Shown here piece by piece: positions 26,930 to 52,600 of a DNA stretch of 64,000 bases. Every line of letters begins with the position of its first letter. The first letter of the stretch is position 1. A model generated the notes under the pieces. That model made no database searches. It had not been told where the DNA came from and saw nothing but the letters and a program-made list of their open reading frames with translations. Location of the stretch: positions 10,354,001 to 10,418,000 of the forward strand of contig JBHGNT010000020.1 of the NCBI GenBank assembly GCA_043228905.1. Direction: 5' to 3'. Both the position numbers and the translations under genes were made by a program. The DNA is from Azolla caroliniana (taxonomy: Eukaryota; Plantae; Polypodiophyta).

Positions 26930-29248
26930 CTGGGTGTCGACGATCGTGACTTGTCAGCAAGAGAGGGAGAAAATAGAAAAAGATGAAGACAGAATGTAGA
27001 CACACACACACACACACACAGAAGAAGAAGAAGATTGGAAATGGAAATGAGTTTATATTATAAGAGAACAAGGGTGACAAAAGTAGTATAAGGGGCTAAA
27101 GACTAGTGTTGAACCGAATGAGTTGTGATAAATGTATGGACACCTATTTATAGGTCCTTATGGAGTATTCTAGAATGTTCTAGAATACTCTAAATATCTT
27201 GTAATAACTAGCATAATTATTTTACCTATATATTATATATGTTATTATAATGGTTAAAGGTTTAACACATAGACCAAGAAATTGTGGGTTCGAATCCCTG
27301 TAATCCAAAATGTATGTCTTCAAGACATTATCTCCCTTTTTCGACGACAAGTTCCACGAGTCGGAAGACAAGTGTTCGCACTTGGCGTATGGGGATATTG
27401 TTGTGAAATGCAACAACCATGTCGGAGGCATTAGCAACATGCTCGGTAGTCTCCCATGTTAGATCATTAGGTGTATAACCTAACTAGTCAACCAAATAAT
27501 ATAGTTTGTTGCAAACGATCTTGGAGTTCGAGAATGGCAGCAACTTCATATTCAGAGCCATCAGAAACTTCGATTGAAGGTGGGGGTGATGTAAGACAAC
27601 CCGAAATAGAGTTTGTTGTGTAGGGTTCCAAAAGTGAAACATGGAAGACCGCGTGAAGACGTATATGAGGTGGACGATCAAGGTGAAATGCCACATCATT
27701 GACCTTAGCAGAGATCACATATGAGCCAAAACGTTGATAATCAAGTTTGCAACAAGGTCTGGTGGTTCTAATGCTACCTTCTTGTTGTTCGGCCGACAGT
27801 CAATTACTATACGTAGCCAACACAATAGGTCGAACGTTCCGATCCGAACGTTCTATCAAGATGATTGTGGTAGAAGGATGGATAGACAAACTAGTTAGCA
27901 AATAGGACTTGCTACTTGAGTAACCTTGATTGACTATAAGATCTTAATATAATACTTAGTGAGCAAAACAATTCAGAGGTCGACACTTCGAATAACAATG
28001 AATAGAGAGACATGTCAACACAGAGATACTCTAACCACTAACTATATTAATTTCCAAAATAGAACGATAACTTTACAATGCTTTCGGTCCCTCATTTATA
28101 GGTAAAACCGAGAGTGTCTCTTTCCAAGATTGCACCTGTCTATATTCGGCAAGAACTAGCACAAAATTGTTTAACTAATTCTAATATATATTTTCTACTT
28201 GGCAAAATAAATATTGTTGATTCATTGATCCGACTCCGACTCTTCTATACTTCCGAACATCTTCAACTCTGACCCTTTCACACTTGTCCGATTTTGACAT
28301 CCCGACCTTGTAGCTAAGCAGCTAACACTTGGCACGCTTGTGGGACAGTGCCTTGCATGGTCGAACCCCTTGTCATATCCTACATCTGATTTGTTGTGGA
28401 GTCGGGGTCGTCGTTGTCATGGAGAATGTCGAACAATGACGGTTCTTCTTCTGTTCCATGATTGGTGTCAGTCACATTCGTGTGTTTGTCCTGCCTTTTA
28501 GCATCTTCAACCTGTGGTTGGTCAGTAGAAGCTCCAAGTTCTACAGCCTGCTGCCGACGTTCTCATTTGTAGCCATCTAAGTGTACCGAAGTGTCGATGT
28601 CATGGGCATCAAATTCCTCCATAAGGTGTGTGATCTCCTCCCTATGGCTGGTCACTAGTTCATACAAGTCGCAGGCAAGGTCTTCTTGGACCACTATAAT
28701 GGCTTCTTCGCTCACCTTGAAGAATCATTGGCCCTATTTGTTACGGTTATCCCTGTCAGCGCATAATAATTGCAGTTTTGTTGCCTGCACCGACCAGGTC
28801 TTCCAACCGTTATCGAGGATATCAGTGACCAACTTGAGTGTTTTTAGCTTGTGAGCCTTTAGGATTTGTCGAACTTTGTCTTTGCCCATATTGACCTGAG
28901 ACTGCATCGTGGCCAGTTCCTTATGCATCTCGACTATCTAAGCATCTGTCGACCCTGGTTATGTCATTAATTTCGCTTCGGCAACTAGTAAGGCCAACCG
29001 TTTGTGTTCATATTTCATTTCGAGTTTGCCACAAATACGTGTTAATGCAGTATTTGACGACTTGAGGCGTTCCTTCTCCTTGCTCATACCTTGTCGACAC
29101 CGTTCTAGACACAGTCATAAATGCTCGAAATGATCGTTTTTTCTACTATATACGACAAAATCATCAAGGAATACCTGCATAAATGCAGGGATATAATTAG
29201 TGAAAATTTCCTGAATAACACTTTGAAATGTCGCCGGAGTTGTTTTTA

Positions 29249-30597
29249 GGGAAAAGCAGCAGGATACCCCTGGAAGTTTGTTTATTTACCAACATGCCCC
29301 TAGAAGTTCCAAATTTACCAAACTACCCCTATATCCAAAAAAATACACTTTATAAAGTAATTATACACTCAAATCTACAAGCCCTATTTACTAGAATACC
29401 CTTCAAACACAAATTTCTTACTACCATATCCCCCCCCCCCCCCCCGTCATTATATATGTATGTATGTGTGTGTGTGTGTGTGTAGATAGAGAGAAACAAA
29501 TATCAGAGATACATATTAATAGCTCATAATAGAAGCTCATCTTTTTAACAAACAACTAGTAGAGGAGCACAGAGAAAAAGAGAGGAAAAGAACATTTAGA
29601 GAGAGAGAATTGATTACAAACATGGTGTGCAACCGCAGCAGAAGAAGAAGAAGAAGAAGAAGGTTAAAAATAGTTGTAGTTAGTGACCATTACCATTACA
29701 ATCACTAATCTTTCTACCTGTCTACCCTAATTATCCATTCATCCATCTATCCGTGTCTGTGTGTGTGAGCGTGAGTAGCATACATATATATAGAAGTCAA
29801 TGGAGGTGGTCCAACCTTCCACATTCATGTTGAGTAGTAGCCTGAGGAGCTTATCTTCAGATTACCTCACCCTTCTGGACTGTGGCCCTGACCGATTCGT
29901 GGACATTGCTTTCTGCATAGACAGCCGAACCTATGCCCTCATCTACGCCCATTGTTGCATCATGTCGGCTCGCAGCCCCTTCTTCCGCCTCATCTTCTCC
30001 CCCTCTTCCTCTTCTACTTCTTCTTCCTCCTCCTCCTCCTCATTTTGCAATTCTTCTACCTCCTCCTCCTTTCATCCGCCTCAATCTCATTCCCCACTAT
30101 GCTAGTAGCATCTCTGTGAGCCAATGCTACCCTAACCAACAACAGTCTAATCTTCAGGGCCAGAACCAGATTGTTTCTTCTTCTATCACCGGGAGTCCCG
30201 CCAGCAATTCTCCAACAGGTATATTGAGTAACTAGGAGGCCGGTGCAGCTCAAATCCATGGGGACAAAGATGTCATTCCCGTCGATATAGTCTCATATGA
30301 TGCATTTGTTGCTTTGCTTTGCTTCCTCTACACCGGCCAATTGATCATCGATCCATCCTCTACCAAAATACTAGGCCCCGCACTGCCCCTTCACTACAAT
30401 CTACCGTATGCCCCGAACATGGTAAAAAGAAATTTGTGTTTGAAGGGTATTCTGGTAAATAGGGCTTGTAGATTTGAGTGTATAATTACTTTATAAAGTG
30501 TATTTTTTGGGACATAGGGGTAGTTTGGTAAATTTGGAGCTTCCAAGGGCATTCTAGTAAATAGACGAACTTCCAAGGGTATCTTGGTACTTTTCCC
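29249..30597. mobile_element. Pack-MULE (non-autonomous Mutator-like element)
   Basis: About 170-bp TIRs GGGAAAAG... (29249-29419 / 30427-30597); 9-bp TSD TTGTTTTTA/TTCTTTTTA; removal restores RT MMFGLKTTPATFQ of B. Confidence 0.95.
29800..30360 (+). pseudogene. Captured 5' fragment of a BLADE-ON-PETIOLE/NPR-family BTB/POZ gene
   Basis: SLRSLSSDYLTLL..FVDIAF..AHCCIMSARSPFFRLIF...VIPVDIVSYDAFVALLCFLYTGQ parallels the BOP N-terminus; stops and frameshift; no ankyrin region. Confidence 0.88.
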
Positions 30598-30833
30598 TTC
30601 TTTTTAATCCAAACATCATTACGACTGCGACAAACACTCCCCATTTCGTGACAAATGTTGTCTTTTCCTGATCTTCTGGGTGCATTCAAACCTGATTATA
30701 GCCATTAAAGTTGTCCAGAAAGCTGTAAATTTTGTGACCTGCCACTACATCCAAAACTCCATCCGTAAATGGTAATAGAAATGCATCCGTTATTATGGCC
30801 ACATTCAACTTCCTATAGTCGACACATACCCGG

Positions 30834-31541
30834 TGTCGCGTTGTTACGCGCGTGCATGTACAAAGAGGCGGGACCACGGGGGCCTTGAACCGAAGAGCGA
30901 GAGAGAGAGAGAGAGAGAGAGGAGAGGAGAGGAGAAGAGAAGAGATTTGCAAATACACAAATGGGAGAAGGAAAGAGAAAGAAACGACACACTTAATTAC
31001 AGTAACAATCGATTACAATATCAAGAGATTACAAACTCTAACGATTACAACCGGCAAGGCGGCGATGGACCCGACACGGGGATCCTACTCACGCACACAG
31101 ACAGAACACACTGGACCCCATGAAAAAAGAAGCGTAGAAGGGAGAGCCTCTACTGGCAGCGCACGGGCTACCCCCGAAGCAGAGGCGTCGAACTCCCAGC
31201 ACCCACAGAGAATGACGATCCGAGGAGGAGAGAGAGCTCGGCACTCGGTCCTGCAACCCTTCGTCCTCCCTAACGCGCGATCCCTTTTCTTCCTTCTCTC
31301 CCTCCTTAAATAGTTCGCAAAAAGGGGGTGCCCCTTTCTCCCTAGTCAAAACCGCTTTATTCCCTGTCCCTTTCGACAGAGATACGCACAATCCCTAATA
31401 AATGTATACTACCTAGTATTTACATCAGCCGATCCAATTATGAATCATGTTCAAAACATCAATTCACGCGTCCACCCATGTAAGAGCCGGTTCATGCGTC
31501 TTTTTCTCCAATTCCGCCTATGGCCGGTTTTCTTCACGACA
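30834..31541 (-). mobile_element. Solo LTR related to the G family, inserted in RT of B
   Basis: TGTCGCG...CACGACA; 4-bp TSD CCGG/CCAG; removal restores KKNGKIRVCVDY. Confidence 0.88.
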
Positions 31542-31767
31542 CCAGATCTTTCCATTTTTCTTGGGTACGACTACAATTGGACTTAACCAACCTGTCTTTT
31601 TTACTGGTAGAATAAAACCGACCCCTGAGGAGTTTGTTGATTTCCTCCTTAACTTTCACAGTATAGTTCAGATTTTATTTGATACTGATAGGCTTGATCT
31701 AATCCCTTCATGTCTTCAAATGACCAAGCAAACACATCTTTATATTGACGCAATAAATAGGTCATCT

Positions 31768-32568
31768 TGTTAAGAAACAAGTCTCTCCGGATGGGAAGTG
31801 AGAAGAACAGTGTTGATGAGCAAACTCGGCCGAGGCCAAATCCAGATGTGGAGTACCCGGTGAGAACCGGATGAGGAGTACCCGGCTACGGAAGACCCGG
31901 TGAGAACCGGATGACGAGTACCCGGCAAGAGCCGGATGGTGAAGACCCGGTGAGAACCGGATGTGGAGTACTCGGCAAGAGCCGGATGGTGAAGACCCGG
32001 TGAGAACCAGATGTGGAGCACCCGGCAACGGAAGGCCCGGTGGGAACCGGATGACGTGTGCCCGGCAAGTGCCGGATGATGCAGGCCCGGTGAGGAGTGC
32101 TCACCGAATGAAGGGACATATTCATAAATATGTTTTCTGAGAGTCCATCGAGCCTATATTTGTAAATAGCTGAAAAGTCATATTAGTATAAATATGACTT
32201 AGAGCAAACTTAGTATATGTGTTGTTGTCATTCTTGTTGGCGCTAGATTAGAGAGTGAGTAATAGTGTACAGAGAGAGAGAGAGAGAGAGAGGATGAGGT
32301 CGTTGCCTCTATTGTAACCGCCGCTTGTGGCGAAGATCGTGAGCACGAGGTCGTTGCCTCTGTGAGCTCACTGTTGTAATCATTGTGATATAGTGATAGT
32401 TTGGAGTCTGTGAACTCCCGTGGTTTTTCCCTCTCAGGGTTTTCCACGTTAAACATCCTGTGCACTCTTCTCTCCTTTGTGTCGTGCGTTCATTATCCGT
32501 TTTCTGTGTTTGATTTTAGACTCGGTTGTGGCCGAGCGTTGTTCATCAGGAGCGTGTAGTTCCTGTCA
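31768..32568 (+). mobile_element. Solo LTR of the Copia C family with CCGG-rich tandem repeats
   Basis: TG...CA; perfect TSD CATCT; homology to the LTRs at 35439 and 48764. Confidence 0.92.
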
Positions 32569-33820
32569 CATCTTTGCTTTATTAGCTGGCTCCATTTCCT
32601 TAGCTATTAGGATGGTCTTGGGTTTGGCGTCAGCATCAACTAAGTTTAAGTCTTCGAGTGCCGATGCTTGAACTCTTTGGGACACCTGCATCTCCCTTTC
32701 TGTGGCTTCCTGTTGCAGTCATAATTCCTTCAATGTTTTGTCATCCTCAGAAACATCTTCTTCTTTATCTTCTTCCCCCATATAAGGCGTAAGTGTCTGT
32801 AAGATGTCTACTTCGAATAGTGGAATGATCTTTGGATTGTCTTCAAAATATCGATCTTCTTCGAACTCACTCAAAACTTCCATCATATTTACTACTACAT
32901 GAACTGGTGAACATTGTCGAGTCGTACTGACCTTTTCATGTGTTGACATCCAAATTTTATTCTTTCCCTTTTGGAATGTTAAGGTGTTCTTGTTCCAATT
33001 CTGTTTAATATTTGTTGTTTTAAACCAAGGTCGTCCTAATCATAATGGATATGCACCTGGTGCCTCCAAATGAAGTACTATTGCCCATATTTGAAAAGTG
33101 TGACCCACTACAACGATATCTAATTGACGAATTAATCCCAACGGTCGGATTGTACTCGTGTCAGCCATTCTTAACCAGAAAGGACATGCATCCCATTTGG
33201 TAATTCTGAGCCAATCACATGTGAACTTATTGATCACATTTACCCCTGATCCGTCGTTGACAATAGTGTCGGTGACTTCCTGACCCCGAATCACTTTTTT
33301 TATTGATGGACTCTGTTCATCCATTATTGTCGATCCGGTGATCAGATTGTTGTAATTAACCAACACTTTTTCAGCCTCATTCTTCACAATAATTGTTGCA
33401 ACCTTCGTGAACTTGGGCACTAATTTTAATAATCCCGTCAAGGGTAATGACACTTGGCAATCTGCCAAGATTTTCCATGTTTCTTCATCTTCAGTCGACG
33501 TTTGTTGTGCCGATTGTCCAACTGGTTGTGCATCGATGGATGCCGCATTGTCTTGTATCATTCTGGCGACATTGTTGTTGTTGGCGTCCTCAACCCATTC
33601 CTTAGCCGCCTTTTGTACTGCTTCCTACACCTCCCACTCCGATTGTTTGCCTTTACTATGAGTGGTTACTTGTTCTATTTCCGATACCACCATATTTTTT
33701 GTCGGTGCCTTCCCTTCATCTTTTGTCGGGCATTGATTTGCATACTGTCCATCTTTTTTGCATATGTAGCAATTTGGACCTAATGAGCCACTAGATTCTC
33801 TGGGTTCATAATGTGGTCGA

Positions 33821-35198
33821 CGAGCATCCTGAGATTCAGAATTATCCTTGTCTCTGGAATCATGTTGCAATTGTCGAGACCCTTTCGGCTTTCGGTTGTC
33901 ATTAAATCAACGATTTGACAGTCGATTATCCTCATTTCTTTTATAGTTATTGGACCTTGGGTCGTCCTGATAACGACTTCCCCTGTAGGGTTGTCGGTTA
34001 TTGTTATCTCGTCGGGGTGAGTGGTCCCGATCATAATTCCCGTTGGTAGTCATCTTGACGATCCTCATCATATCGGTCATTACGCTGATATTCACTACGT
34101 CGATAATCGTCTCTGCGATTATCCACTCGACGGCCATCATTCCGCCGGTTATCATCTCGCCGCTCTAATTGATACCGATCATCATATTTTGATCAATCGT
34201 CATCATGCGACCAATCCCGATTTTCCTGATAATTATTTTCAAGATGAATTTGCCGAACCGGTGCGACTGTTCTATTGAGCATATTATACTCACACTGCTC
34301 GACTGAATGAGCTTTGGAATGGCAAATTGTATAATAAGTGCGTAGACTACACTCTATTGTCGAATGCCCTATGTTGAGGCAAGTAGTACATTGAACAACT
34401 TGCCAGAATTTGAGCTCTTCTAATGTAGTAAGTTCTAATGTAACGCTGACATGTTCATACTTGTCTTATTGTGTGTTTGATCCATTGCCATAGCCTTATC
34501 GACCACTTACGAGCATCCTGAGATTCAGAATTATCCCTGTCTTTGGAATCATGTTGAAATTGTCGAGACCCTTTCGGCTTTCGGTTGTCATTAAATCGAC
34601 AATTTGATGGTCGATTATCCTCATTTCTTTTATAGTTATTGGGCCTTCGGTCGTCCTAATAACGACTTCCCCTGTAGGGTAGTCGATTATTGTTATCTCG
34701 TCGAGATGAGTGGTCCCAATCATAATTCCCATTGGTAGTCATCTTGACGATCCTCATCATATCGGTCATTACGCCGATATTCACTATGTCGATAATCGTC
34801 TCTGCGATTATCCACTCAACGGCCATCATTCCGCCGGTTATCATCTCGCCGCTCTGATTGATACCGATGATCATATTTTGATCGATCTTCATCATGCGAC
34901 CGATCCCGATTTTCCTAATAATTATTTTCAGGATGAATTTGCCGAACTGGTGCACCTGTTCTATTGAGCATATTATACTCACACTGCTCGATTGAATGAG
35001 CTTTGGAATGACAAATCGTACAATAAGTGCGTAGACTACACTCCATTGTCGAATGCCCTATGTTGAGGCAAGTAGTACATTGAATAGGTTGCCGGAATTT
35101 GAGCTCTTCTAATGTAGGTAAGTTCTGGTGTAACGCCGACATGTTCATACTTGTGTTATTGTGTGTCTGATCCATTGCCATAGCCTTATCGACCACTT
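33821..35198. repeat. 689-bp tandem duplication within gag of B
   Basis: Units start cgagcatcctgagattcag at 33821 and 34510. Confidence 0.93.
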
Positions 35199-38100
35199 GC
35201 TCCAATGATTGATTCAAGAAATCGAACACTGCTAGGGTTGTTCGAAGCGGTTCACATATAGCCTCCAAGAAAATATCCTTTAATTCCTCTTATGGAATTG
35301 GCCACGAAATTTGCTTTAATTGTTCGAATGACTCGAACGCTTTTTTCCCGTTCTAGGCATACCAATTTGCCGACGGCCCGTCAAGTGATAAGATGAACTC
35401 AACAATTTTTTATTTTTCCTCGGTTGCTGCTGACAGTTTGAAAGGAATATTGTTTCCTAAGCTATGCTCGGTCACAACCGAGACGTCGGATCAATCATAG
35501 AAAACAGGGATATGGTGAGATGTAGCTTACACACGAAACAGTAAAGAAGAGAGTGCACTGGATGTTAACGTGGAAAACCCGAATCTGGGAAAAACCACGA
35601 CAGCCCTCAGACTGCAAAATATCACTATATCAAGATTGCAACAATGGGGCACAGAGGCAACGACCTCTTGCTCCCTCGCATCGCCACCAGGCGATTACAA
35701 CAGAAGCAACAACCTCTTCCTCTCTCTCTCTCTCTTCTCTGTACACAGTTACACTCTGAATTATCGCCACAACGATAATAACACAACCAACTCTACATCA
35801 TACTATTAAGTTTGCCCTAGGTCATATTTATACTAATATGACTTTCGGGCTATTTACAAATATAGCCCCAGTGGGCTCTCTGGAACATATTTACATATAT
35901 GTCCCTTCCATCCGATGAGAGGTTCTCACTGGGCCTGAAACATCCAGTTCTCACCGTGTCTTCCGTTGTCGGGTACTCGTCATCCAGTTCTTCTCACTTT
36001 CCATCCAGAGGGACCTGTTTCCTAACAAACTCCCCCTTCACTCCGGCATGGAATGTCGTACTAGTCCGATCCGCTTCCGACATGCATCTAGCTTGTCGGG
36101 TATCAGTACTTTGGTCAGCATATCTGACCCGTTCTCGGCCGTGTGGATCTTCATCAGTGCGAACTCTCGATCTTCTACTCGCTCCCGGATCCAGTGATAC
36201 CTACGTTGGATGTGCTTCGTCCTGGAATGGTACGCTACGTTCTTAGCAAGGTGGATGGCACTTTGACTATCGCAATAGAGCCGGTATTCATCTTGCCGGA
36301 TATCGAGCTCTCCAATGAAGTCCTTCATCCATAATATTTCTTTGTCGGCTTCCACAGCCGCCATGTACTCTGCCTCCGTGGTTGACAACGCAACCGTCTT
36401 CTACAGCCTCGACTGCCATGAAACAGCTCCCCCTGCATATGTCATTACATACCTGGATGTAGACCGGCTGGTATCCACATCAGCCGACATGTCCGAATTG
36501 ATAAAACCGTCAAGTTGAGGTTTACCGAAGCCGAATCAAAGACACATATTCGAAGTGCCCTTCAGGTACCGGAGTATCCATTTGACCGCGTTCCAATGCT
36601 CCTTGTCGGGATTGCTCATAAACCGGCTCACCACTCCGACTGCGTATCCAATATCCGGTCGAGTACACACCATTGCGAACATTAAGCTCCCGATGGCAGA
36701 AGCATATGGAACCTTCATCATATCTGCCTTCTCTCCTCTCGTCTTTGGGCTTTGCTTACCGGATAATCTATAATTTTCCAGGAGTGTCGATCCAACCGGT
36801 TTTGCTTCTAACATGTTGAACCGCTGAAGCACCTTTGTCACGTATTTCTCCTATGACAACCGCAATTGTTTCTTTGACCGGTCCTGGATGATGTGCATCC
36901 CCAGCATCTGTCTTGCCGGACCCAAGTCTTTCATTGCGAAAGTTCGGTTGAGAGCCTTCTTCAGCATCCGTATTTTGGCTTGGTCCCGTCCGATGATCAA
37001 CATGTCGTCCACGTACAGAAGGAGTATCAGGAAGTCGCCTCCTTCGAACTTCTTCACAAACACGTAGTGATCGGCCTGCATCTTGTGGTACCCTTGATCG
37101 GTCATGAAGGAGTCGAACTTCCGGTACCATTGTCGGGGAGCCTGCTTCAGTCCGTACAGGCTCTTCTTCAACTGGCAAACCAGGTGCTCCTTCCCTTTCT
37201 CCACGAATCCTTCCGGTTGCTACATGTAGATCTCCTCTTCGAGGTCACCGTGAAGGAATGTCGTCTTCACGTCCAACTGCTTTACCTCGAGTTCCATGCT
37301 TACCGCTATACTCAGCATCGTCCGGATGGAGGTCATCTTTACTACCGGGGCAAATATCTCGTCGAAGTCCACACCCTTCTTCTGTTGGAACCCCTTCACC
37401 ACGATCCTGGCTTTGTATCTCGGGGGGTTGCCGGCATCTCCCGGTTTCAACTTGTACACCCACTTGTTTCGGAGTGCCCGCTTTCCTTTCGGCAACTCCA
37501 CCGATTCATATGTATGGTTCTCATGCAGGGAATCCATCTCATCCTGCATGGCACTTAACCATTTGCGGCTATGGGCATCACTTTTAGCTTCCTCGAAGCT
37601 TTCTGGCTCCCCCTCATCAGTTAGCAGCACATGCTCTGCATCTGGAAATCTCTAGGGGGGCCTTCTCTCTCTGAGACGATATCTCTGTCTTTGGCTTTCG
37701 GCAACCGGCTCCTCTATTTGTTCTTCATCCGAATCTGATTCGGGATCTTGGCCGGTTCCGGTTTCACCTATTCCTTCTTCTTTGGCCTGTCTTGTCTCCT
37801 TACCGTCACCAGCCGGTTCATCGAGTGCTAACCGGTCTCTTGCCGGTTGGGTCTGCTCATCGTAGAATCGATCCTTACCGGTCGACTCGGAGTTCATTAT
37901 CTTCTTCTCTGACTCCCAGTCGGCGAGCGTCTTGTCCTCCATGAAGATAATATCTCGACTCCGGAATACCTTCTTGTCAACCGGATCCCACACTCGGTAG
38001 CCGAACTCATCATCGCCGTATCCGAGGAATATGCATGGCCGGGTCTTTGGATCCAACTTTCCTCTCCGGTCCTTAGCAACATGCACGTACGCGAGACACC

Positions 38101-38585
38101 CGAACACCTTTAGATGCCGGTAGGACACTTCCTTACCGGTCCATACTCTCTGCGGCGTGTCTCCGTCCAAGGGTACTGAGGGTGATCTGTTTATCACATA
38201 TGTCGTCGTCGACAGTGCCTCAGCCCAAAACTTCTTGGGTAATTTTGCATGCGCCAGCATACTCCGGACCCTCTCCATTATGGTCTGGTTCATCCTCTCG
38301 GCCAACCCGTTTAGTTCCGGCGTCTTCGGCACGGTAAATTCGAGCTGGATTCCCTTCGAGCGACAGTACTCCTCGAACTGCCCCCGGTATTCACCTCCAT
38401 TATCTGCTCGAACCGCCTTCAGATTTCGGCCGGTTTCTCTTTCCACTCTCGCGTGGAGCTCTTTGAAGACAGATAGCACCTGATCCTCGTCTTCAACGGT
38501 GTGGCCCACAAACTCCTGTTGTGGTCATCTATGAACATCACGAAGTACTGTGATCCTGCATGTGACTTCGTGTCCACTTGACACA

Positions 38586-41500
38586 TGTTACCGGCCGGCA
38601 AAGGAGTCCAGAGTGGGAAACGGAGAGCTAATTAAGTAGTAGGAATGTGGTTGTAATTAAGCTATGAGTGTGGACGGACGGACCGGAAACGGTATGCCGT
38701 TCCGGATCCGGACCGATCCCGAACAGGTGCGGATGGCACCGTTTTGTAATACAGACTGGAAACCTATTTAAAGGCCCGGATACAATGTAATAGTTAGCGG
38801 TTAATTAATGAAAGCTTAAGCGTTGTTATCTCTCTGTGTTAATTGTCGTTCTGTCTTAATTGTTATATCTTACGCGTGTTATGAAAGACGATCCTAATAA
38901 GTAACTTAATTAAGTCAGATTAAGCGTTGAAGTCTAATCCGGTTGCCGTAACACCCTTTGGTGAAGTGTCTCTCGTAGACACCCTGTGTTAGGCCATTGT
39001 CCAACCCGAAGAGTTAACACAGTTTTTGGCGACCACGATTCCTGTTTTTGCAGCGAACGACGGCACGGATGGATGTCTAGATCAACGCACGACCTGGTTA
39101 CAGATCGAACTCGGCGCCTTGCCAAAAGGCAAAGGAGACGCGAGGCTTTCCAGCAAGCGGCGCAGGAAATTAGAGCGGATCGCTCGTTTTCCAACGTAAT
39201 CCGGAGAGTAGAGGAGGACTCCCTCTGGTTACAGCAAACATCGCACCCGGACGACGGCAGCAGCCTAAGCAGCCTCTGGGAAACCGAATCCCTTCTCCAC
39301 GCGTTGGCAAACGGAGAAGGCGAAGCAAAGGCCTTTTCAGCATATGAATCAGACTCCGAAGGGGAATACAGCGTGCACACGAACTACCGTAGCAGCAACG
39401 AAACCCCGGGCGGACCGGAGGACGAAGGATCGAATACCTTACCGACACCGGAACCGGAACCGGAAGTGCTAAAGCTGGAACCCCCGCAACCAGCAGAGGA
39501 AGAACGACCTCCGACACCGGAAGTCGAAGAGGAGAGGCCTCCGTCACCAAAGGAAGAGAAACAACCGACACCGAAATCAAATCGGGAAAGACCACCGACA
39601 CCGGAGAAAATTCCGGAACGAGCACCAACACTACCAGCCCGCGCACCGATACCGGACGACGACATGCCGTTCCAGTACTCTGTTGGGAGACAGGTCCCTC
39701 CGGATGGAAACGGCATGAGGAGAACCCGGCTACGGAGAGCCGGATAATACAGACCCGGTGAAGACCGGATGAGGAGTACCCGGCTACGGAGAGCCGGATG
39801 GTGCAGGCCCGGTATGAACCGGATGAGGAGTACCCGGCTACAGAGAGCCGGATGGTGCAGGCCCGGTATGAACCGGATGAGGAGTACCCGGCTACGGAGA
39901 ACCGGATGGTGCAGGCCCTGGTACGAACCGGAGGAAGAGACATATTCGTAAATATGTTTCTGAGAGCCCATCGAGGCTACATTTGTAAATAGCCGAAAAG
40001 TCATATTAGTATAAATATGACTTAGGGCAAACCTTTTAGATGTGGTTGTAGTTGTTGTTACTTTTCTTGTTGGTGCAAAAAGAAGAGAGAGCACGTAATA
40101 GTGTACAGAGAGAGAGAGAGAGAGAGAGAAAGAGGTCGTTGCCTCTACTGTAACCGCCGCCTGTGGCGAAGAGCGTGAGTCCGAGGTCGTTGCCTCCAAG
40201 AACTCACTGTTTTGTACATTCATACATAGTGACAGTTTGCAGCCTGTGGGCTGCCGTGGTTTTTCCCCTAGTTTGGGGTTTTCCACGTAAACCTCCTGTG
40301 TAGTGTGTGTGTATCTTCCTCTCCTTTGTATCGTGTTTTATTTCCCGATTTTCTGTGTATGAAAATAATCTCGGTTGTGGCCGAACGTAGCGCATAAGGA
40401 ACGTTCGGTTCCCGTCATACTCCAAGTATAGAGATGATCCGGACGCGGAAGCTCATGTGCACGCCTTTGAACAGACATGGGAAGCCAACCATGTGTCCCA
40501 GCGATTGACACCGGAGGAAGAAGAACGCTCTAAGATAGCGGAGTTTGGCGTCACATTGGAGGGACCGGCAGCAAGATGGCGCCGGACGCAGGACCCGTCT
40601 ACCATCAACACCTTTGCAAATTTAAAAGCTAAATTCTTGCATTTTTTTCAAAAGGAGGTGGACCAGACCGTAATGGTAGGCTTATTTTATACCATCCGGC
40701 AAGGGGCAGGGGAGAGCATTCCCCAATTTGTCATCCGGTTTCAACGGATGCATAGTCAGCTTGCCCGTGCACCCCCAGAAGAGGAATTACGGACGATATT
40801 CCTAAACGCGCTCCGGGAACCCCTACGCACGGTTTGCACGGTAATCGACTTCCGCACAAGTACCATCGACCAGGTCATTGACCGGGTGAGAGAGATGGAA
40901 AAGACAAGCTCCTGGCTCACACTGGGAGCACTTCAACGGGCGTTACCGTCCGATGAAGACCTCCGGTTTCGGCAAGCAATACAGTGCACAACCTGCTTGA
41001 ATTCCGGACACTCGGCTCTAGAATGCACTATGAGGACGCAATGTGTAATCTGTCAATCCAAGAGCCATACGACGGATAGGTGCGAGTATAATCTGTTGAA
41101 TCGGCAAGCACCGCCCGTCCGACAAATTGAGCCACGTAGCAACCGGGATGAAGAAGACGAACGCTGGCGGCGAATGGACCGTGACCGACCGGCACAGGAT
41201 GTCCGGTTTGGCAAGCGACGGGAAAATGATGTCCGGTACGGTGATCGGCGGGATAACTATGACCGGCATGATCGGTACCAAGATTACAATAGACGATACG
41301 AACATTACGACCGGGAGCACTCCCCCGGGTATCGTCAGCAACGGGAGGAATACGGCAGATATAACGGGCAACCCCGTCAAGAGTACCGTAATAAGAAGAG
41401 CTATAACAAAAAACAGCATTTTAAAAAAGGCGGCTACCCCCGGGATCCGGAACAAGGAGCTCCAAGTAGCCAACCGGTACAAAACCCCGCGCGTACCGTA

Positions 41501-42791
41501 GGACCTGCCCCGGGTACAACAGACAATGCCGAATCTAGCAATACCCGGAAGGCCTACTGCTACTACTGCCGACAAGAAGGCCATTATAGTAACCAATGCC
41601 CGGTGAAGAGCTATGAAAAACGACCGGCGGTAAATATGGTAGTCCTTGAGGTGGCAAACCTGCAGCAGGTGACCACAAGGTCGAAGGGCATGGCCAAAGA
41701 ATGGGAGACACAGGAGACCATCCGGAAACAAGCAACGGAATGGGTAAAGAAAGCAAACGAGCAGAATGTCACAGACTTACAGCAGCAAAAGGAGAACACC
41801 ACAGGGCTTGCCGGCGGCAGTCACTCCGAGAACGAGACATGGCAGGCGTTGCAAGAATGCCAGATTACGTTACCACTAGGAAGACTCCTACAACTCGTGC
41901 CAAGATTCACGGAAGGACTGAAGACAGCCATGACGGCAGGAGAACCATCACCGGCACCGGTACTCTTCTCGAATCCGGAGGAGGGACCAACAGTGGTAGA
42001 CACCAGCAGTCCGGTAATCACTGCCATTGTAAAAGGGAAAGAACTCCCCAGCACAATTATAGACGAAGGCTCTGGGTAAATGTAATAAGCCTCCGGACGT
42101 GTGATGACCTAGGAATCCACGAGTGGGAGCCGTGTCCGTTCTGGTTGCGGATGGCCGATACAAGCTCAGTGCGGCCGACAGGATTAATACGGAAATTAGA
42201 AGTCACCGTCGGCGGTCATACATTTCACATCTCAGCCGTAGTGCTACAATTACAGGCACAAGGCGCATACCCGCTATTGTTGGGGCGGCCATGGTTGAAA
42301 ACGGCACATATCAAACAGAATTGGCGAAAAAATATAATTACCTTCCGGCGAGGAAAAGCCAAGGTACGGGTACCAACACAGCCAAGGACGAGCACTGGCA
42401 AGGAATGTACACCGTTGTATGCGGAATGCGTCAACATGCTAGAAGGGTTAGCGGACGAAGAAGAAGCTCAATACCTGCAGGAAAACCCGAAGATCATACC
42501 CCTCTTCGAAATTGACATTGCCGAAGCAGTAGCACCATACTTACCACAACCGGAAGAGGCTGAAGCAGAACCGGATAAAGACGCAATCCGGGAGTTACGG
42601 CAAGCGCAGGAAGCGTTGGAACGGGAAATGGCCGTTTCACAGCGCGTGAAAGCGTCGCAACTGGAAGAGGTGAACCTAGGCACCACAGACGAAGCAAAAC
42701 CGGTGCACATCGCCAAGGAGATGAAGTCCGAAGACAAAACGGCGATGATAACACTTCTCACGGAATTCCGCGATGTGTTCGCCTGGTCATA
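38586..42791 (+). mobile_element. 3'-truncated Gypsy element D, relative of B: LTR 38586-about 39019, PBS TGGCGACCAC, gag-protease 39073-39680 + 40423-42791
   Basis: Gag homologous to B gag, CYYCRQEGHYSNQC knuckle, IIDEGSG protease; ends at the RT start DVFAWS. Confidence 0.88.
39681..40417 (+). mobile_element. Solo LTR of the Copia C family in gag of D
   Basis: TG...CA; perfect TSD TACTC; removal restores MPFQYSKYRDD; about 57-bp tandem repeats. Confidence 0.95.
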
Positions 42792-45700
42792 ACGTGTGTG
42801 CATGTGGATGGATACGAGGAGGTGTGAGTGAGTGTCCAGTATGAATGCTCAATGGGGCTTACACCCCTATGTATCTATCCCCTCTTGTACTATTTAACCC
42901 CTTATGGGGAATGAATGAAACATGAATGAACATTTCTCTATCTCTCAATCTCTCTCTTGTCATCTCTCTCTTCTATCTCCCCTTACGTTGAACCCCCTTG
43001 GGAGGGGGGTGGAGCCATTCTAGGCACCACCCCCCACCCCGCAATGCTTCTCTATATGATCTCTCTCACCATCATACTCTCCATCACCATGTCTATCTTC
43101 ATTACCAATCATCATAGTTATCATTCATCATCATCGTCGTCCTTAACCCTAACCCTAAAACCTACAACACCTTTTGGCGACCCCCCTTTGGAGATGGAGT
43201 CAAAGAATGATACGCGGATGTGCAAGCCATAGCGACTAAGTGTAGGAAATGGTGAAACGCGCAAATGACGGTGAATATGTTGGAGGAAGTCTATGGAGGA
43301 ATGCATGAATGGCAACAATGTTTGTGCGAGGTTGCGATTAGTGTCCATTTGCGTGTTTCCGAAAGCGGTTAGTGACAATGTGCGTGTTCTCAAAAGCGTG
43401 GTGCAAGATGCACGGCTGGATAAACAGCAACGCAAAGGGAACTGGTGCCAGCACGACCAGAAAGAGAAGCCCACCAGGAGACTGCGGAGAAAGTCGCAGT
43501 GTGTGGAGCGGAGACCGGTAGGATGTGCTGAGAATGCACGGGCAATGGTTCCAGAAGAAACAACACGGAGAGAGTCGGAACCGGAATCGGAACAAGAACT
43601 AGAGTTGGTTAACACCGAAGGACCATAAAAGACAGAGAAGAGATGCAAACGCAAACCAGACATCGACGACCAGAGAAACCAACAGCACCGGAAAGACACG
43701 GTCGGAGACACCTAACAAAGAAGAAGACCACCGGACAAACAGAGACATGGATGTCGACTGCGATAGAGATATCGCACAAAGACCATGGGCAATGCAGAAT
43801 GGCGGAACCAAAGACAAAGTCCCGGAAGGCCACGGCCAACCAGACAGACACAGCCAGAAAAACGAAGGACCGGACTAGATCAGACGAACGATCAGACGAA
43901 ATGGGGAGTCGACAGAGGCGACTGGCAAACCCAGACGGAGACAAAGACACCGACATGACATAGCCAGAAACGGAGAAGTCAGACGAGACGACGTGATGCA
44001 AAAAAACCACAGACGGGGGCTAGAGAAAAACACATAAACACAATGATGGAATGGTCCGGATAGAAGAAACGGAAAAAAAAAACGGAATGAACCGGACGGA
44101 TACAACCGGAAAGACATGGCCGTTTGTGCCGAACAACAACGAAGATGGAGACGACCGGACAGCAGTTCGAGCGGTCAGATAGGCCGGACGGTGACCGGAC
44201 AGGAGCAACCAGAGCGGCCGAAGAGCGGCTAGAAGGGCCGGAAACCGATCGAAATATCCGGACAGTGGCTGGAGCAGCCGAAGCGGCCGGAGGGCTGGAC
44301 AAGGCCGAAGAAACAGACACAAAGCCGGGATGACGTCCGGACAGTGGTGTGGCTGGAGAGTGACAGGAACGACGGCCAAATAGCAACAAAAGCGGCCATA
44401 ATAGCCGGACGACGCCGGAAAGCCCGCTGGAGTAGATGGCCGAGTGCAGACTGGTCGGATAGGGCCGACAACGATGACATCCAAATGGCGGCGACGTAGG
44501 ACACTGACAACCAGATGACGGCCGACCTAGGCAAAAACAGTGATGGCGACGGCTGGACGGGGCGATAGAGACAACGACAACGACGGAGATGGTCGGACAT
44601 GCGCCCGAATAGTGGACGGGCCAGATCGGACGAACACAGTCATATCGGACAACGAAGAACAACCGAAGTGGTTGGACAGGGCCGATAGAGACGGCAAAGA
44701 CGCCTGACCACGGCCGGAGAATCAGCGGCCAGAACGGCAACAAAGCCGGGATGATGACTGAACAAAGCGGCTAAACGATGGACCTCGGCCAAAACAGACG
44801 GCCGACTGCAGATTTGCCGGATATGGCTGACAAGGCCGGCGACAACAACAAATGGAGACGGTGATGACCGGACAGGGCCAGATAGACAGGCGCCGGACAA
44901 TGACCACATACGACGACAATGGCGGGGCCGGACAGACATACATAGCAAAAGACAAAGCGAGGGAGATGGAGACAGCGATGACAGAGACGGAAACAGCCAG
45001 CCAGACGGGCCGGACAGAGACGGTGACTGTGCCGGCGACGCAGACGCCGAATAGTGACAGATGCCACAAAGTGATGGCGACAGGGAGTGGCCAGAGAACG
45101 GTTAGAGCGACCGAACCGGCGGCTCGATTGTAAGAAGGCGGGTGGATGAAGTGGCGGTGGTGGCATCAGCTGAACAATGGACAGACGTAGAACAAACAAT
45201 GGACACACCGAGAAGAAATACTGGTGGTCGCAGAAGAAATAGAAAGAAAACAGAGAAAAGAAGAAGAGAATGTAGCAGGAAGAGAACATAGAAGAAGAAG
45301 AGAAGGCACAGAACAGAGGATGGAGAGAGGAGAGAAAGGACGACAAGAAGAGAAGCAGGAAACGAAAGCAGAAAGAAGACGAAAAAGATGAGGGATACGC
45401 ACCAGAGAGAGTGCAATAACGGACCACAACAATAACCTAGAGATAAAGACAAAGTCAAAGCATTACAAAAACAAGAAGACAGGAATGGATAAAGACGAAA
45501 TTGAAGCAGAAGATAGGACGGGAAGAAAAATAGAGAAAGGGCAAGAGAGAATGATAGGGGTATGGAACATAATTTTAAAACATGAGGGTATTTGATAATA
45601 TTTCAAAAACAAAGGGTAGCAACCTAAAATTTCATAAACTTGAGGGCACCGACAAAATTGTAAAAACTCATCCACCTAAAGAAATGGATGTGATCAACAA

Positions 45701-46467
45701 CGACAACTCACACAAAATTAAAGGAAGAACACACATACACACAACATGCTTTTGGACCCATGATGAAGTTTGTAAGCCGACAGAACGAGAATGTTTGTGT
45801 CGCGGACGATTTGCTGACCGACAAAGATGTTCGAGTCAAGCATTCCGATCGAGGGAGTCGATCGTTGAAAGGGTCGATGGAAGTTCCGGTCGAAGAAATA
45901 TCATCATCAAGGCATGTGGGATCGACGTGCAAGGCACTTTCCCACGGGCATGCCATATTGTGTTACCCCGTACGAGATGTACAGAGAGTCAAGTGTGATG
46001 ATCGAGGGTCGAATGTTATCATGATGTTGTTGTGTATGTGTAGGAGGCATAAATGTAATTGTGAGTCTATACGTATGTGAACACATGCACACGTGTGTGC
46101 ATGTGGATGGATACGAGGAGGTGTGAGTGAGTGTCCAGTATGAATGCTCAATGGGGCTTACACCCCTATGTATCTACCCCCTCTTGTACTATTTAACCCC
46201 TTATGGGGAATGAATGAAACATGAATGAACATTTCTCTATCTCTCAATCTCTCTCTTGTCATCTCTCTCTTCTATCTCCCCTTACGTTGAACCCCCTTGG
46301 GAGGGGGGTGGAGCCATTCTAGGCACCACCCCCCACCCCGCAATGCTTCTCAATGCACATGATCTCTCTTGCCATCAATCTCATACTCTCCATCATCATC
46401 ATAACCACCATGTCTATCTTTATCATGATTATCATCGTCCTTAACCCTAACCCTAAAACCTATAACA
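42792..46467 (+). mobile_element. Non-coding LTR element E (LARD-like): truncated 5' LTR 42792-43169, 3' LTR 45961-46467
   Basis: Near-identical LTR copies; PBS TGGCGACC at 43175; 2.8-kb purine-rich interior with no recognisable protein motifs. Confidence 0.85.
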
Positions 46468-46748
46468 ACACACATCAGTATGCACCAACTCCAGTGGTGC
46501 ATTACGTCTCATCGGTGGCCTCGATCGGAAGGAGGTCCGGTTTTGTTTACCGGCCAGACAATCAGTGCACTTCTCCAAGTGCACGTTCTTCACTGGAATG
46601 AGGTTGTCATCGGCAAGCCTCTTCATCCCCTTCACGCTCATGTGACACAGTCTCTTGTGCCACAGCTCACCGACAGTGTCGAAAGCCACGTTCACTTCTT
46701 CCGGGCATAACCGGGCATTCATCAGGTACAACGTGTTGACCTTCCAGG

Positions 46749-47018
46749 TGACGGAAACCCAACGTTCCTTATGTGCAAGGCTCGGCCACAACCGAGCTTA
46801 GAATGATACACAGAAAACGGGAAAAACAACGCGACACAAAGAAGCAGAGAATACACAGGAGGTTTACGTGGAAAACCCCAAACTAGGGGAAAAACCACGG
46901 CAGCCCACAAGCTGCAAACTGTCACTATGTAGGAATATACAACAGTGAGTTCACTGAGGCACCGACCTCGTGCTCACAAATCTTCGCCACAGGCAGCGGT
47001 TACAACAGAGGTAACGAC

Positions 47019-47067
<49 letters not shown>

Positions 47068-47511
47068 CAGTTACGCACACTAATCTCATGCAAAACAGAA
47101 AAATGACAACAACTACCTTAAAGGTTTGCCCTAAGTCATATTTATACTAATATGACTTTTCGGCTATTTACAAATGTAGCCTCGATGGGCTCTCAGAAAC
47201 ATATTTACGAATATGTCTCTTCCTCCGGTTCGTACCGGGTCTGCGTCATCCGGCTCTCCGTAGCCGGGTACTCCTCATCCGGTTCACACCGGGCCTGCAC
47301 CATCTGGCTCTCCGTAGCCGGGTACTCCTCATCCGGTTCACACCGGGCCTGCACCATCCGGCTCTCCGTAGCCAGGTACTCCTCATCCGGTTCACACCGA
47401 GCCTACACCATCCGGCTCTCCGTAGCCGGGTACTCCTCATCCGGTTTCGGCCGAGGCCGATAGCGGCACTGTTCTTCTCCCAACCCATCCGGAGGGACCT
47501 GTCTCCCAACA
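46749..47511 (-). mobile_element. Solo LTR of the Copia C family inserted in element C itself
   Basis: TG...CA; perfect TSD CCAGG; about 57-bp tandem repeats 47245-47445. Confidence 0.95.
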
Positions 47512-49124: not shown

Positions 49125-49656
49125 TACTATTAAGTTTGCCCTTGGTCATATTTATACTAATATGACTTTCGGGCTATTTACAAATATAGCCCCAGTGGGC
49201 TCCCTGGAACATATTTACATATATGTCCCTTCCATCCGATGAGAGGTTCTCACCGGGCCTGCAACATCCGGTTCTCACCGGGTCTTCCGTTGCCGGGTAC
49301 TCCACATCGGGTTCTCACCGGGTCTTCCGTTGCCGGGTACTCGTCATCCGGTTCTTCTCACTTCCCATCCGGAGGGACCTGTTTCCTAACACAGTCGTTG
49401 TGCCACATGGTACTATTAAGTTTGCCCTTGGTCATATTTATACTAATATGACTTTCGGGCTATTTACAAATATAGCCCCAGTGGGCTCTCTGGAACATAT
49501 TTACATATATGTCCCTTCCATCCGATGAGAGGTTCTCACCGGGCCTGCAACATCCGGTTCTCACCGGGTCTTCCGTTGCCGGGTACTCGTCATCCGGTTC
49601 TTCTCACTTCCCATCAGAAGGGACCTGTTTCCTAACACAGTCGTTGTGCCACATGG
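49125..49656. repeat. Tandem duplication of the LTR end plus 19 bp of flank
   Basis: Units 49125-49410 and 49411-49656; the second lacks one 40-bp subrepeat. Confidence 0.9.
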
Positions 49657-52600
49657 TTCATGTCCCATGTAGTCAGAAAATCTCTTATATGCGCTTCCGC
49701 ATCAGTGCCATCTCGATATTTCAAGTAAGGGTAAGGCATAGTGTCGTCTCCCCAAAATCTCATAAAAAGAATTGTGATCAGACTGCTCCTCGTCTGAATG
49801 ATTATCTGTTAAATTTGGAATTCTACTCTACTCCCGATTAGCTTGTTGCTGATGTTGATGGCTTTGCTCGAAATTGTCAGCACTACCTTTTGCTACACAT
49901 TGAGACTCTTCTCGTGTGTGAGGACGTTTATGGCTGACAGGTGTTTTTAGACCAGACGACATCAATTCCACCTTGTTCTCTGCCTACTGCAGATGTAACC
50001 GGGCATGCCAAAATTATTGTGTTGTTCGGCCGACAATCGATTACTGTACGTAGCAGACACAATAGGTCAAACGTTCCGATCTGAACGTTCTATCAAGATT
50101 ATTGTGGTAGAAGGATGGATAGATGAACTAGTCAGCAAATGGGACTTGCTATTTGAGTAACCTTGATTGACTATTAGATCTTAATATAATTACCTAGTAA
50201 ACAAAACAATTCAAAAGCCGACACTTGGAATAACAATGACCAAAGAGACTTGTCGATATAGAGATACTCTAACCACTAACTATATTAATTTCCAAAATAG
50301 AACGATAGCTTTACAATGCTTTCAGCCCCTCATTTATAGGTAAAACCAAGAGTCTCTTTCCAAGATTACACCTGCCTATATTCGGCAAGAACTAACACAA
50401 AATTGTTTAACTAATTCTAATATATATTTTCTACTTGGCAAAATAAATATTGATGACTCATTGATCCACTACGTCGATCCGACTCTGACTCTCTATACTT
50501 CCTAACATCGTCAACTCCGACCCTTTCACACAAGTTGTCTAATTCCGACATCCCGACCCTGTAGCCGACCAACTTACACTTGTAAGAACCATACTTGATC
50601 TCCTACGTGTTAGTTTTTGGATGGTTGCCAGAAAAGAGTTTGCAAGAAGTATGTAAGAGTTTGGACATGTGCCGCCAAAATTTTGAGATGAACTAGGAAC
50701 CCCGATCACTTATAATATCATCTGGAAGACCATGATGCCGAAACACCTCCTGCATGAGTAAATCGATTGTCACTTGGCTAGTAATGGCCTTTGTGCATGG
50801 AAGAAAATGGACCATCTTCGTAAAACGATCTACTACCGTGAGAATAGAATCAAAACCCTTGGAAGGTGGAAGATTTGTAATGAAGTCCAAGGAAATAAAT
50901 TTCCATGGCTCTCAGGAATAGGCATTGGTTGTAATAATCCATATGGATGATGTCGAGGTTTTTCTGATCGGCAACATCTATCACAACTAGGAACATATTC
51001 CGTAACAAAATGTCAAAGTTGTGGCCACCAATATCGGCAAGAAATTAATTCAAAAATCTTGTGGGTGCCGAAATGTCCAGCCATTGGTGTGTCATGGAAG
51101 TGTTGTAAGACTTGCACTCGTGGAGGACCATCAAGAACATACAATAGGTTTTGTTTAAACAATAAACCACTATGCCAATGGAACTGAGTCATTACGAGGG
51201 TTTTTCGACTGCGAGGAAGAAGCACGATCTGGGACGATATGATCCAAAACATCTTTGACGAATTCATCAGTGACCAAATGATCGCGTATGGCATCGAGAA
51301 GACTTGAATCTCTAGGTGTTGTTATGGCATTAGATGCCAATAACCGTAGACGAGTAGGATTTGTTTTTTATGCTCAAATGTTGGTTCACTTGGACAAAGT
51401 TCCATATAAGAACGTCGAGGATGAAGCATTTTGTTGTGTTGACATGTTCCAAAATAAGCGTCATTGTAAATGCTCACTTTAAAATTTAAAATGCTTCGGT
51501 TGCATCTGAACTCCATATGAATGGTTGATTTTTGTAAGTGAGTTGAGTGAGCGGAAACACGACCTTGGAATCATTTTTAATAAATTTCCGGTAAAAATTT
51601 GCAAACCCGAGAAAACATTGCACATCATGCACTGAAAGGGGCGTCTGCCAATCTAAAATTGTTTGAATCTTTGTGAGGTCCATAGAGATACCATCTGATG
51701 ATACAACATACCCCAAAAATTCCACTTGATTCTGACCGAAACTGCATTTTTCTAATTTTGCGTAGAGTCCATATTCTCATAATCGACATAGTACCTGAAA
51801 AACATGTGTATCATGCTCCTCTTGGGTCTTTGAGTGAATCAAAATGTCATCCAAGTAAATTATAATGAAGATATCGAGAAAATCTCGAAAAATATCATTC
51901 ACCCCATATGTTGAAAAACTGCAGGTGCATTCATGAGACCGAATGGCATCACAATATACTCAAAATGTCCATAGCGAGTGGGAAAAGTAGTCTTCCATTC
52001 ATCCCCCGGAAGAATCCGAACTATATTATATGCACAGCGAAGGTCCAATTTCGTGAAATATTTTGCTCCACTAAGACGTTCCTATAGGTTCGAGATTAAT
52101 AATAGAGCATATCTATTCCGGATAGTCAGTTTGTTTAACCCTCGATAATCCATGAGCAACCGAAGAGACCCATTCTTTTTCTTAACGAAGAAGATGGGGG
52201 CACCATCAGGGGATCTAGAATGCCGGATGAATGCGTTGCCAAATTCTCTTCGATATATTCCCAAAGAGTCTCTAGCTCTACAGGTGAGAGATTATAAATT
52301 GGCCCCCATGGAGGTTCTTTCCCTGGCTACAAATCAATAGGGCAGTTGTATGGCCAATGCTCCGGCAATGTATTGGCCTTCACCTTATCAAAGACATCTG
52401 AGAACTCTTTGTATTTCCCTGGTAGTTGGATGTCCAACTTCTATAAGATGGATGATGGAGTTGATAATATTGCGAATACGAACATGTCCTCGTTCCCTCC
52501 TTCCTTACGTAGAGAGATGTTCAATATCTTATGGGATCCAGTATCTAATGTCAGAGATTTGAGAGATGCAAGTTCTATTCTTTTTTTCTAAGACTCCTTA

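Follow-up and report, generated by a model that had tools for sequence, protein, structure and literature searches.

Retroviruses and LTR retrotransposons are, to our knowledge, generally taken to prime their plus strand from a polypurine tract (PPT); primer variation has so far been described mainly for the minus strand. In the canonical scheme, as set out in the available parts of the work on HIV-1 and Ty3 (PMC3185511, PMC2665208), the element has LTRs, a 5' PBS and an RT with intact RNase H, and the primer ends 2 nt from the LTR. The Ty3/gypsy clade described here is alike in all these respects but, where the canonical elements have an RNase H-resistant PPT, carries instead a copy of a tRNA end with a hairpin, hereafter the cassette. 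Drosophila gypsy and yeast Ty3 have a two-site or bipartite PBS (PMC1635307, available in part); there the site is complementary to the tRNA on the RNA, pairs with internal tRNA arms and coexists with a PPT, whereas the RNA of the clade is identical to a tRNA 3' end (tRNA-sense on the coding strand at 15/15 loci) and has no PPT. The Helenus TRIMs (TRIMp3; Kojima 2024, PMC10886601) also contain tRNA-derived sequence in an LTR element; according to the accessible sections of that paper, however, their tRNA-like part is a Pol III promoter inside the LTRs, both PBS and PPT are present, and the author excludes a priming role for it, while the cassette lies outside the LTR of elements without a PPT. 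The self-priming elements Tf1 and Tcn1 likewise encode a substitute for a standard primer, but in the portions available of the two sources (PMC6317226; bioRxiv 10.1101/2022.12.06.519325) it is the minus-strand tRNA that is replaced and the PPT that is kept, the reverse of its absence in the clade. Neither a tRNA-primed plus strand nor a tRNA-end copy at the PPT position is described in the open-access literature searched; closed journals, Repbase and REXdb supplements may differ. What the present analysis contributes is a comparison of two elements (B and E), the retention of the cassette by the non-coding E, the covariation of its insert, one exceptional locus (L037) and a rival explanation acting in cis.

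Nested LTR elements fill the window (the whole 64,000-nt stretch of plant DNA analysed), which also contains a piece of a PPR gene at 63.4-63.9 kb. The original prediction concerned two Gypsy elements of the window, E and B, and held that both lack a PPT before the 3' LTR and carry a homologous tRNA-like motif there. Element E, together with element D to which it is joined, shows the following features:

38581..38585: ACACA target-site duplication of the D+E insertion, left copy
38586..42791, plus strand: D, the left half of the D+E insertion (LTR, PBS, start of gag-protease-RT)
38586-39019, plus strand: D LTR
39020-39026: 5' LTR-PBS spacer of D
at 39027, plus strand: D PBS
about 39680-40417: copia-type LTR interrupting D's gag-protease-RT start
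42792..43169, plus strand: remnant of the E 5' LTR, first 130 nt missing, fused to D's RT
43170..45915, plus strand: E internal region, A/G-rich
43170-43174: 5' LTR-PBS spacer of E
43175..43186, plus strand: E PBS of TGGCGACC type, 5 nt past the 5' LTR
45916..45955, plus strand: E cassette, resembling the 3' third of a tRNA
45916-45920, plus strand: T-stem 5' arm of the E cassette
45921-45925, plus strand: loop of the E cassette
45926-45938, plus strand: 13-nt insert with hairpin in the E cassette
45941-45945, plus strand: T-stem 3' arm of the E cassette
45946-45955, plus strand: 10-nt tail of the E cassette, ending in CCA
45956..45960, plus strand: E spacer TATTG, 5 nt, between CCA and LTR TG
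45961..46467, plus strand: E 3' LTR, TG...CA, with a TATA-like box at LTR position 229
46468..46472: ACACA target-site duplication of the D+E insertion, right copy

D's RT joins E's truncated 5' LTR at 42791/42792, and the block at 38586-46467 sits in a copia integrase whose reading resumes across the site. Two unrelated LTRs, D-type on the left and E-type on the right, thus lie under the single ACACA duplication (window 38581-46472), and the insertion is likely to be a recombinant cDNA from co-packaged RNAs. That D and E form a single insertion suggests that E travels with D-type machinery. E itself is non-autonomous, without coding sequence of its own: its internal region (43170..45915) has no Pfam match and no similarity to the pol or the extra ORF of the relatives described below. 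Its LTR pair is identical at 262/264 nt over the part compared. E is oriented on the plus strand, since its TATA-like box was found on that strand only (both were scanned), the D half of the same insertion is on the plus strand, and the motif is sense in 15/15 loci. The D LTR, scanned on the plus strand only, has a TATA-like box as well. We rejected a minus-strand placing of E, in which the motif would be a plain PBS, on account of the integrase-anchored loci, the D+E insertion and the TATA-like box. At position 45950 the window has A, where G makes up 90-96% of the contig depth in 4/4 runs.

Element B, on the opposite strand, comprises:

27783..28327, minus strand: B 3' LTR, with a TATA-like box at LTR position 227
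28330..28370, minus strand: B cassette, with a 14-nt insert and the tail AAGCGTGCCA
28590..29084, minus strand: remnant of the C-terminal part of the clade's sense 3' extra ORF (47% aa to L008)
29088..35439, minus strand: pieces of gag, protease and RT, interrupted by a tandem duplication and by nested insertions
49638-49772: further gag piece
49999..50010, minus strand: B PBS TGGCATGCCCGG, 9 nt past the 5' LTR
50011-50019: 5' LTR-PBS spacer of B
50020..50578, minus strand: B 5' LTR

As had been claimed, the orientation of B is fixed by its gag, protease and RT pieces, all on the minus strand; its TATA-like box also occurs on the minus strand only (both strands scanned). The LTR pair shows 491 matches, 51 mismatches and 20 gaps, and the outer flanks (CTTCT / CTTGT) agree at 4/5 positions. 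B lacks RNase H and integrase owing to a deletion that spans mid-RT to the end of the 3' extra ORF, but its 3' end is authentic, because some 500 nt upstream of it match the end of the clade's extra ORF.

The two junctions read as described: the E motif is followed by tattg and the LTR TG, and the B cassette, on its sense (minus) strand, by AG and the LTR TG, a 2-nt spacer. No PPT was present at either: the longest stretch of purines within 40 nt of the LTR is 4 nt in E and B alike, while three copia 3' junctions of the window have runs of 7, 7 and 10 nt. Another Gypsy element of the window has an ordinary G-rich tract before its LTR. The homology of the two motifs was also borne out: aligned over 39 nt, they are 82% identical with a score of 41, reached by 0/5000 shuffles (shuffled maximum 32), and the E and B LTRs do not align with each other. 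The extent first given to the E motif, 45922..45960, marks the right site, but the conserved unit starts further upstream, at 45916.

The cassette reads GTGGG, a variable loop of 3-4 nt, GA, an insert of 13 nt (14 in B), GT, CCCAC, RRGCGTG and CCA. In tRNA terms it consists of the T-stem, the acceptor strand and CCA, the 3' third of the molecule, less one base and with a 13-nt hairpin inserted at a point equivalent to tRNA positions 58/59; with the insert removed and one C restored, it gives the T-arm and the acceptor 3' strand of a tRNA. The tRNA identity of the PBS-like motif was presumed to be tRNA-Arg. The insert-less pattern with the added C was found at the 3' ends of ARAGORN tRNAs in 33 of the 40 viral loci scanned (76 found), and the matching viral tRNAs were of mixed isotypes (Arg in 4/33). 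ARAGORN predicted no tRNA gene in the window or in 24 loci, and no Rfam tRNA match occurred within window 27500-51000; the cassette is tRNA-like in its 3' third only, with no recognised cloverleaf. Four matches to its 21-nt core pattern in prokaryote genomes were discarded as chance, since they lack the upstream T-stem and hairpin.

The insert hairpin covaries, in line with the covariation check proposed at the outset: in the unadjusted MAFFT alignment three pairs change on both sides (14 cells), a level reached by 0/500 shuffles, although kinship among the loci inflates these double-change counts. Pairing falls from 86% to 36-53% when the structure is slid along the alignment, and GC, UA and CG are all seen at one pair. 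The outer stem, by contrast, shows no double-sided change in any sequence aligned. Folding energy is no better than that of shuffles on either strand (z about -1.5 to +1.4), and B's cassette does not adopt the modelled fold, which keeps the CCA tail outside the stem. These results speak against the GGCAC...GTGCCA hairpin that had been put forward as one possible primer: its GGCAC half is not kept in other families, the covarying pairs belong to the inserted hairpin of 3-4 bp, and the modelled CCA tail lies outside the stem.

Relatives were collected by a search with D's protease-RT frame, which led to two full polyproteins (P0002 and P0003) whose integrase ends were aligned; metagenome loci were then fetched by the integrase anchor alone (the best 80 of 251). 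Seventeen of the 80 extend at least 2,900 nt past the integrase, the other 63 being too short for the junction. Among the 17, 13 contain the full cassette in sense, L015 and L017 end inside it, L047 ends in the extra ORF, about 600 nt before the cassette of its relatives, and L037 reaches an L059-type LTR with neither cassette nor PPT. This last locus (L037:4118-4815) represents a sister family of the L059 group on a low-coverage contig, and the 700 nt that precede its LTR have no match among the loci or in the window. All 15 integrase-anchored loci showing the motif have it in sense, 2.9-3.9 kb downstream of the integrase, and several also have a normal PBS between LTR and gag. A PPT is absent from 15/15 motif junctions (longest purine run 3-4 nt). 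The spacer between CCA and LTR is 2 nt in B and in 13/13 complete autonomous loci, and 5 nt in E; the 15-nt 3' core of the cassette has 13 matches in 324 kb of loci, all of them sense and followed by NG and TGTT. The motif-bearing loci form five groups, about 68-78% identical in integrase DNA, within which near-copies are not independent; counting E and B as well, different families have kept the motif where a PPT would be, as anticipated. A second CCA-ending match, located about 900 nt past the integrase within the extra ORF of L003, L004, L044, L045 and L046, was not counted.

The extra ORF lies in sense between integrase and cassette, is conserved in the clade with 900-1170 aa (e.g. L064:2524-5430) and matches no significant Pfam family. 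The longest 3' ORF is sense in 10/10 loci, the extra ORF ends 48-135 nt before the CCA in 8/10 loci examined, and the distance from integrase to LTR is 3.0-3.9 kb. Lying outside the ORFs, the cassette is not shaped by coding, and it is retained by the non-coding E. Logan contigs over the E and B junctions were taken from four public runs (three studies). Those over the E motif show at least three variable sites inside it, join it at 45915 and run on from 45956 into the starts of other LTRs. For the B motif the summed contig depth, which does not equal copy number, is about 18- to 130-fold above that of the flanks, with loose ends at both borders. Because the depth borders are sharp, these contigs show that many host families have the cassette in common and nothing around it. 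Viral contigs contained no relative and no copy of the motif. The cassette is real and clade-wide, and almost surely functional.

The clade belongs to the non-chromovirus Ty3/gypsy LTR retrotransposons, with direct TG...CA LTRs and a target-site duplication (TSD), the order GAG-PR-RT-RH-INT and a tRNA-type PBS. P0002 and P0003 have Pfam matches to gag, zinc knuckle, RT, RH and INT in this order and in one frame; the protease was seen only as a DGGSGVN motif, and the catalytic motifs of RNase H are intact. Neither polyprotein contains a chromodomain family, hence not a chromovirus, nor an archaeal RNase H (aRH), unlike Tat/Ogre/Retand; PF13456 is present in P0027 and P0028, which branch apart. 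B and D match P0002/P0003 proteins at 44-89%, and the closest named proteins, at about 50%, are those of Riccia, Adiantum and Marchantia. In a quick IQ-TREE phylogeny (62 rows, named database proteins, midpoint root, SH-aLRT supports, L054 left out for low coverage), the motif-bearing loci group in one clade (SH-aLRT 100), nearest to unnamed proteins and then to elements of Adiantum nelumboides; proteins of angiosperms and Pinus and those with an aRH branch elsewhere.

Judged only by the feature table of Neumann et al. 2019, and within the part of PMC6317226 available, the clade fits none of Athila, Tat, Phygy and Selgy in full. With Athila, Tat/Ogre/Retand, Phygy and Selgy it shares a single GAG-PROT-RT-RH-INT frame without chromodomain, with plant non-chromovirus Ty3/gypsy elements a long 3' region with an extra ORF, and with Athila and Ogre/Retand a 5-bp TSD. 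Tat, however, has the aRH that the clade lacks (the PBS of Tat/Ogre/Retand being tRNA-Arg or tRNA-Lys), and Athila (PBS tRNA-Asp/Asn), which likewise has neither aRH nor chromodomain, is listed with an antisense extra ORF whereas that of the clade is sense and 900-1170 aa long. Phygy and Selgy differ by a TSD of 4 bp instead of 5 bp and are short elements whose polyprotein covers nearly the whole internal part, in contrast with the 3.0-3.9 kb from integrase to LTR in the clade. The same part of PMC6317226 describes no PPT-less group among the plant non-chromovirus Ty3/gypsy lineages.

A canonical PPT ends 2 nt before the LTR TG, as does the cassette CCA, and this is where a plus-strand primer must end. 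Since the CCA lies at the canonical PPT end and nothing else at the junction appears able to prime, position and conservation make it quite probable that the plus strand is primed at the cassette site. The earlier idea of non-canonical priming may therefore stand, a tRNA-type primer being the best reading, without its GGCAC...GTGCCA hairpin. We consider it probable that the clade and its dependent non-autonomous elements have swapped the PPT for such a primer, so that both strands would start from a CCA end; this judgement covers jointly a second host tRNA on the minus DNA and an element-encoded tRNA mimic. The 5' PBS, which starts with TGGC and is 10-12 nt long, lies 4-9 nt past the LTR in B, D, E and nine loci, compared with 2 nt at the 3' junction, and its spacer begins with C, the mirror of the G before TG. 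For the first form of primer, in which the cassette would be a binding site on minus-strand DNA for a host tRNA that primes the plus strand in trans, our preference is tentative and a little short of even confidence. The cassette has a small hairpin, as covariation demonstrates; after RNase H had cleared the RNA, the minus DNA is predicted to fold into a stem-loop that leaves a single-stranded TGGCACGC... site of 10-11 nt beside the LTR. The acceptor end of a host tRNA would pair with this site, as it does at the clade's 10-12-nt 5' PBS, possibly over up to 17 nt with one bulge. RT would then extend from the CCA, RNase H would later remove the tRNA, and integrase would trim the 2-nt overhang. 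This model requires a host tRNA ending in ...GGCGUGCCA.

The element's own cassette RNA might also serve, although this cis alternative is in our view distinctly less likely: the RNA would refold as a T-arm-like hairpin, escape RNase H while held on the minus DNA by its 10-nt tail, be cut after the CCA by the RNase H specificity that removes tRNAs, and prime the plus strand. The behaviour of the tail argues for the trans model and against the mimic, since the 5' PBS alternates between TGGCACGC and TGGCGACC types while the tail stays fixed, with its last 8 nt invariant in 13/13 complete loci and B, a pattern that suggests a fixed partner outside the element. The only bases seen at the two variable positions of the tail are G and A, which on the minus strand are C and T and can each pair with G in a tRNA. 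The transitions that break the stem are G-to-A in 4/4 cases (L062 twice, L064/L065 and B), which leaves a G.T wobble in the minus DNA, whereas the RNA would have an A.C mismatch. The inner hairpin is also better populated as minus DNA than as sense RNA (mean pairing probability 0.66 vs 0.41 in 12 sequences), its probability falling below 0.3 in 6/11 non-B sequences as sense RNA and in 0/11 as minus DNA. This evidence on the strand is thin: the events are few, G-to-A is the commonest decay in methylated DNA as well, and C-to-T and G-to-A rates are equal at B's CpG, so that G-to-A may also represent methylation decay here. Conversely, the cassette is one base shorter than the tRNA end deduced from the PBS of the clade itself, so that perfect pairing with the tRNA stops at 11 nt, and its T-loop part is degenerate and variable in length; both count against the trans model and cost the mimic nothing, its RNA being already in place and perfectly complementary. 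Position 59 is T in the L015/L017/E group, and the compensating change within the cassette of L015/L017 favours internal over tRNA pairing there. With a 5' PBS of only 10-12 nt, RT likely sees an intact T-arm and a short hybrid, a shape that the RNA would copy. A host tRNA on DNA would, moreover, be a substrate for the intact RNase H (PMC2665208), PPT and RT co-evolve (PMC3185511), and in HIV-1 the use of RNA primers other than the PPT is suppressed (PMC2665208), as far as the accessible parts of these papers go. The trans model is further weakened by folding energies at shuffle level, by B's failure to adopt the modelled fold, by the mixed isotypes of the viral tRNA matches and by the L037 junction.

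That L037 junction, together with the 5-nt spacer of E, would suit a different cis signal (packaging, dimerisation, strand transfer, or an integrase or RT pause), with the plus strand primed by another RNA remnant or a nick. Drosophila gypsy indeed has 3' tRNA-binding sites dispensable for cDNA synthesis; yet, in the part of PMC1635307 available, the Drosophila site is complementary to the tRNA on the RNA whereas the cassette is identical to it, and such a signal, which we regard as improbable, would leave the missing PPT and the fixed distance from CCA to LTR unexplained. The three remaining readings we hold to be very improbable. The 3' tail could pair with the element's own 5' PBS and replace the tRNA in minus-strand priming, as the 11 consecutive matches between them in the L003/L048 group would allow; but the run is 8 nt in four other loci, 5 in B and only 4 in L035 and E, so the tail is independent of the PBS, the TGGCGACC-type families largely refute this reading, and it supplies no plus-strand primer. 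Were the motif instead the PBS of an antisense transcript, with a separate RNA template for each DNA strand, the tRNA would sit on RNA and so be safe from RNase H, and the C/T variation would fit G.U pairing. Against this, all ORFs are sense, the TATA-like boxes of three LTRs were seen on one strand only (E and B scanned on both strands, D on plus only), and full-length sense and antisense RNA would form double-stranded RNA. Finally, the lack of an ORF in E itself, and a purine-rich reverse complement of its PBS region, would fit a misread orientation, with the motif an ordinary PBS, or a non-functional relic; the orientation part of this reading is already refuted by the sense motif 2.9-3.9 kb past the integrase in 15 loci, several with a normal PBS before gag, and the cassette pairs covary.

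A successful, high-copy clade without PPT means that the PPT rule can be broken, and provides a natural system in which to ask how RT and RNase H pick the second-strand primer; the trans and cis models predict opposite RNA on plus-strand cDNA. Elements like these, above all non-coding ones such as E, can be given the wrong orientation by annotation software that relies on PBS and PPT, because their better match to a tRNA is found at the 3' end, on the other strand.

Several further observations concern the neighbouring elements. A 15-nt string is common to the PBS region of E (43173-43189, plus strand) and the unrelated Gypsy element F (19174-19190, minus strand), where it lies upstream of a TATA-like box, apparently in F's LTR; it may be due to chance. 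Downstream of the F integrase, arrays of a tandem repeat with a unit of roughly 105 nt occur twice (window 16142-16522 and 18098-18671). A Gypsy RT-RNase H remnant, 26-42% to P0003, occupies window 51423-52201 on the minus strand. B's gag contains a 690-nt tandem duplication (94%; window 33820-35198), and its RT hosts an insertion with 180-nt terminal inverted repeats, 91% complementary (window 29248-30598), which resembles a derivative of a DNA transposon. Several related LTRs of copia type, with internal repeats of 51-54 nt, are nested in B, D and copia C, at the following positions:

31768-32568: copia-type LTR
35434-36027: copia-type LTR
39680-40417: copia-type LTR
46748-47480: copia-type LTR
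48759-49657: copia-type LTR
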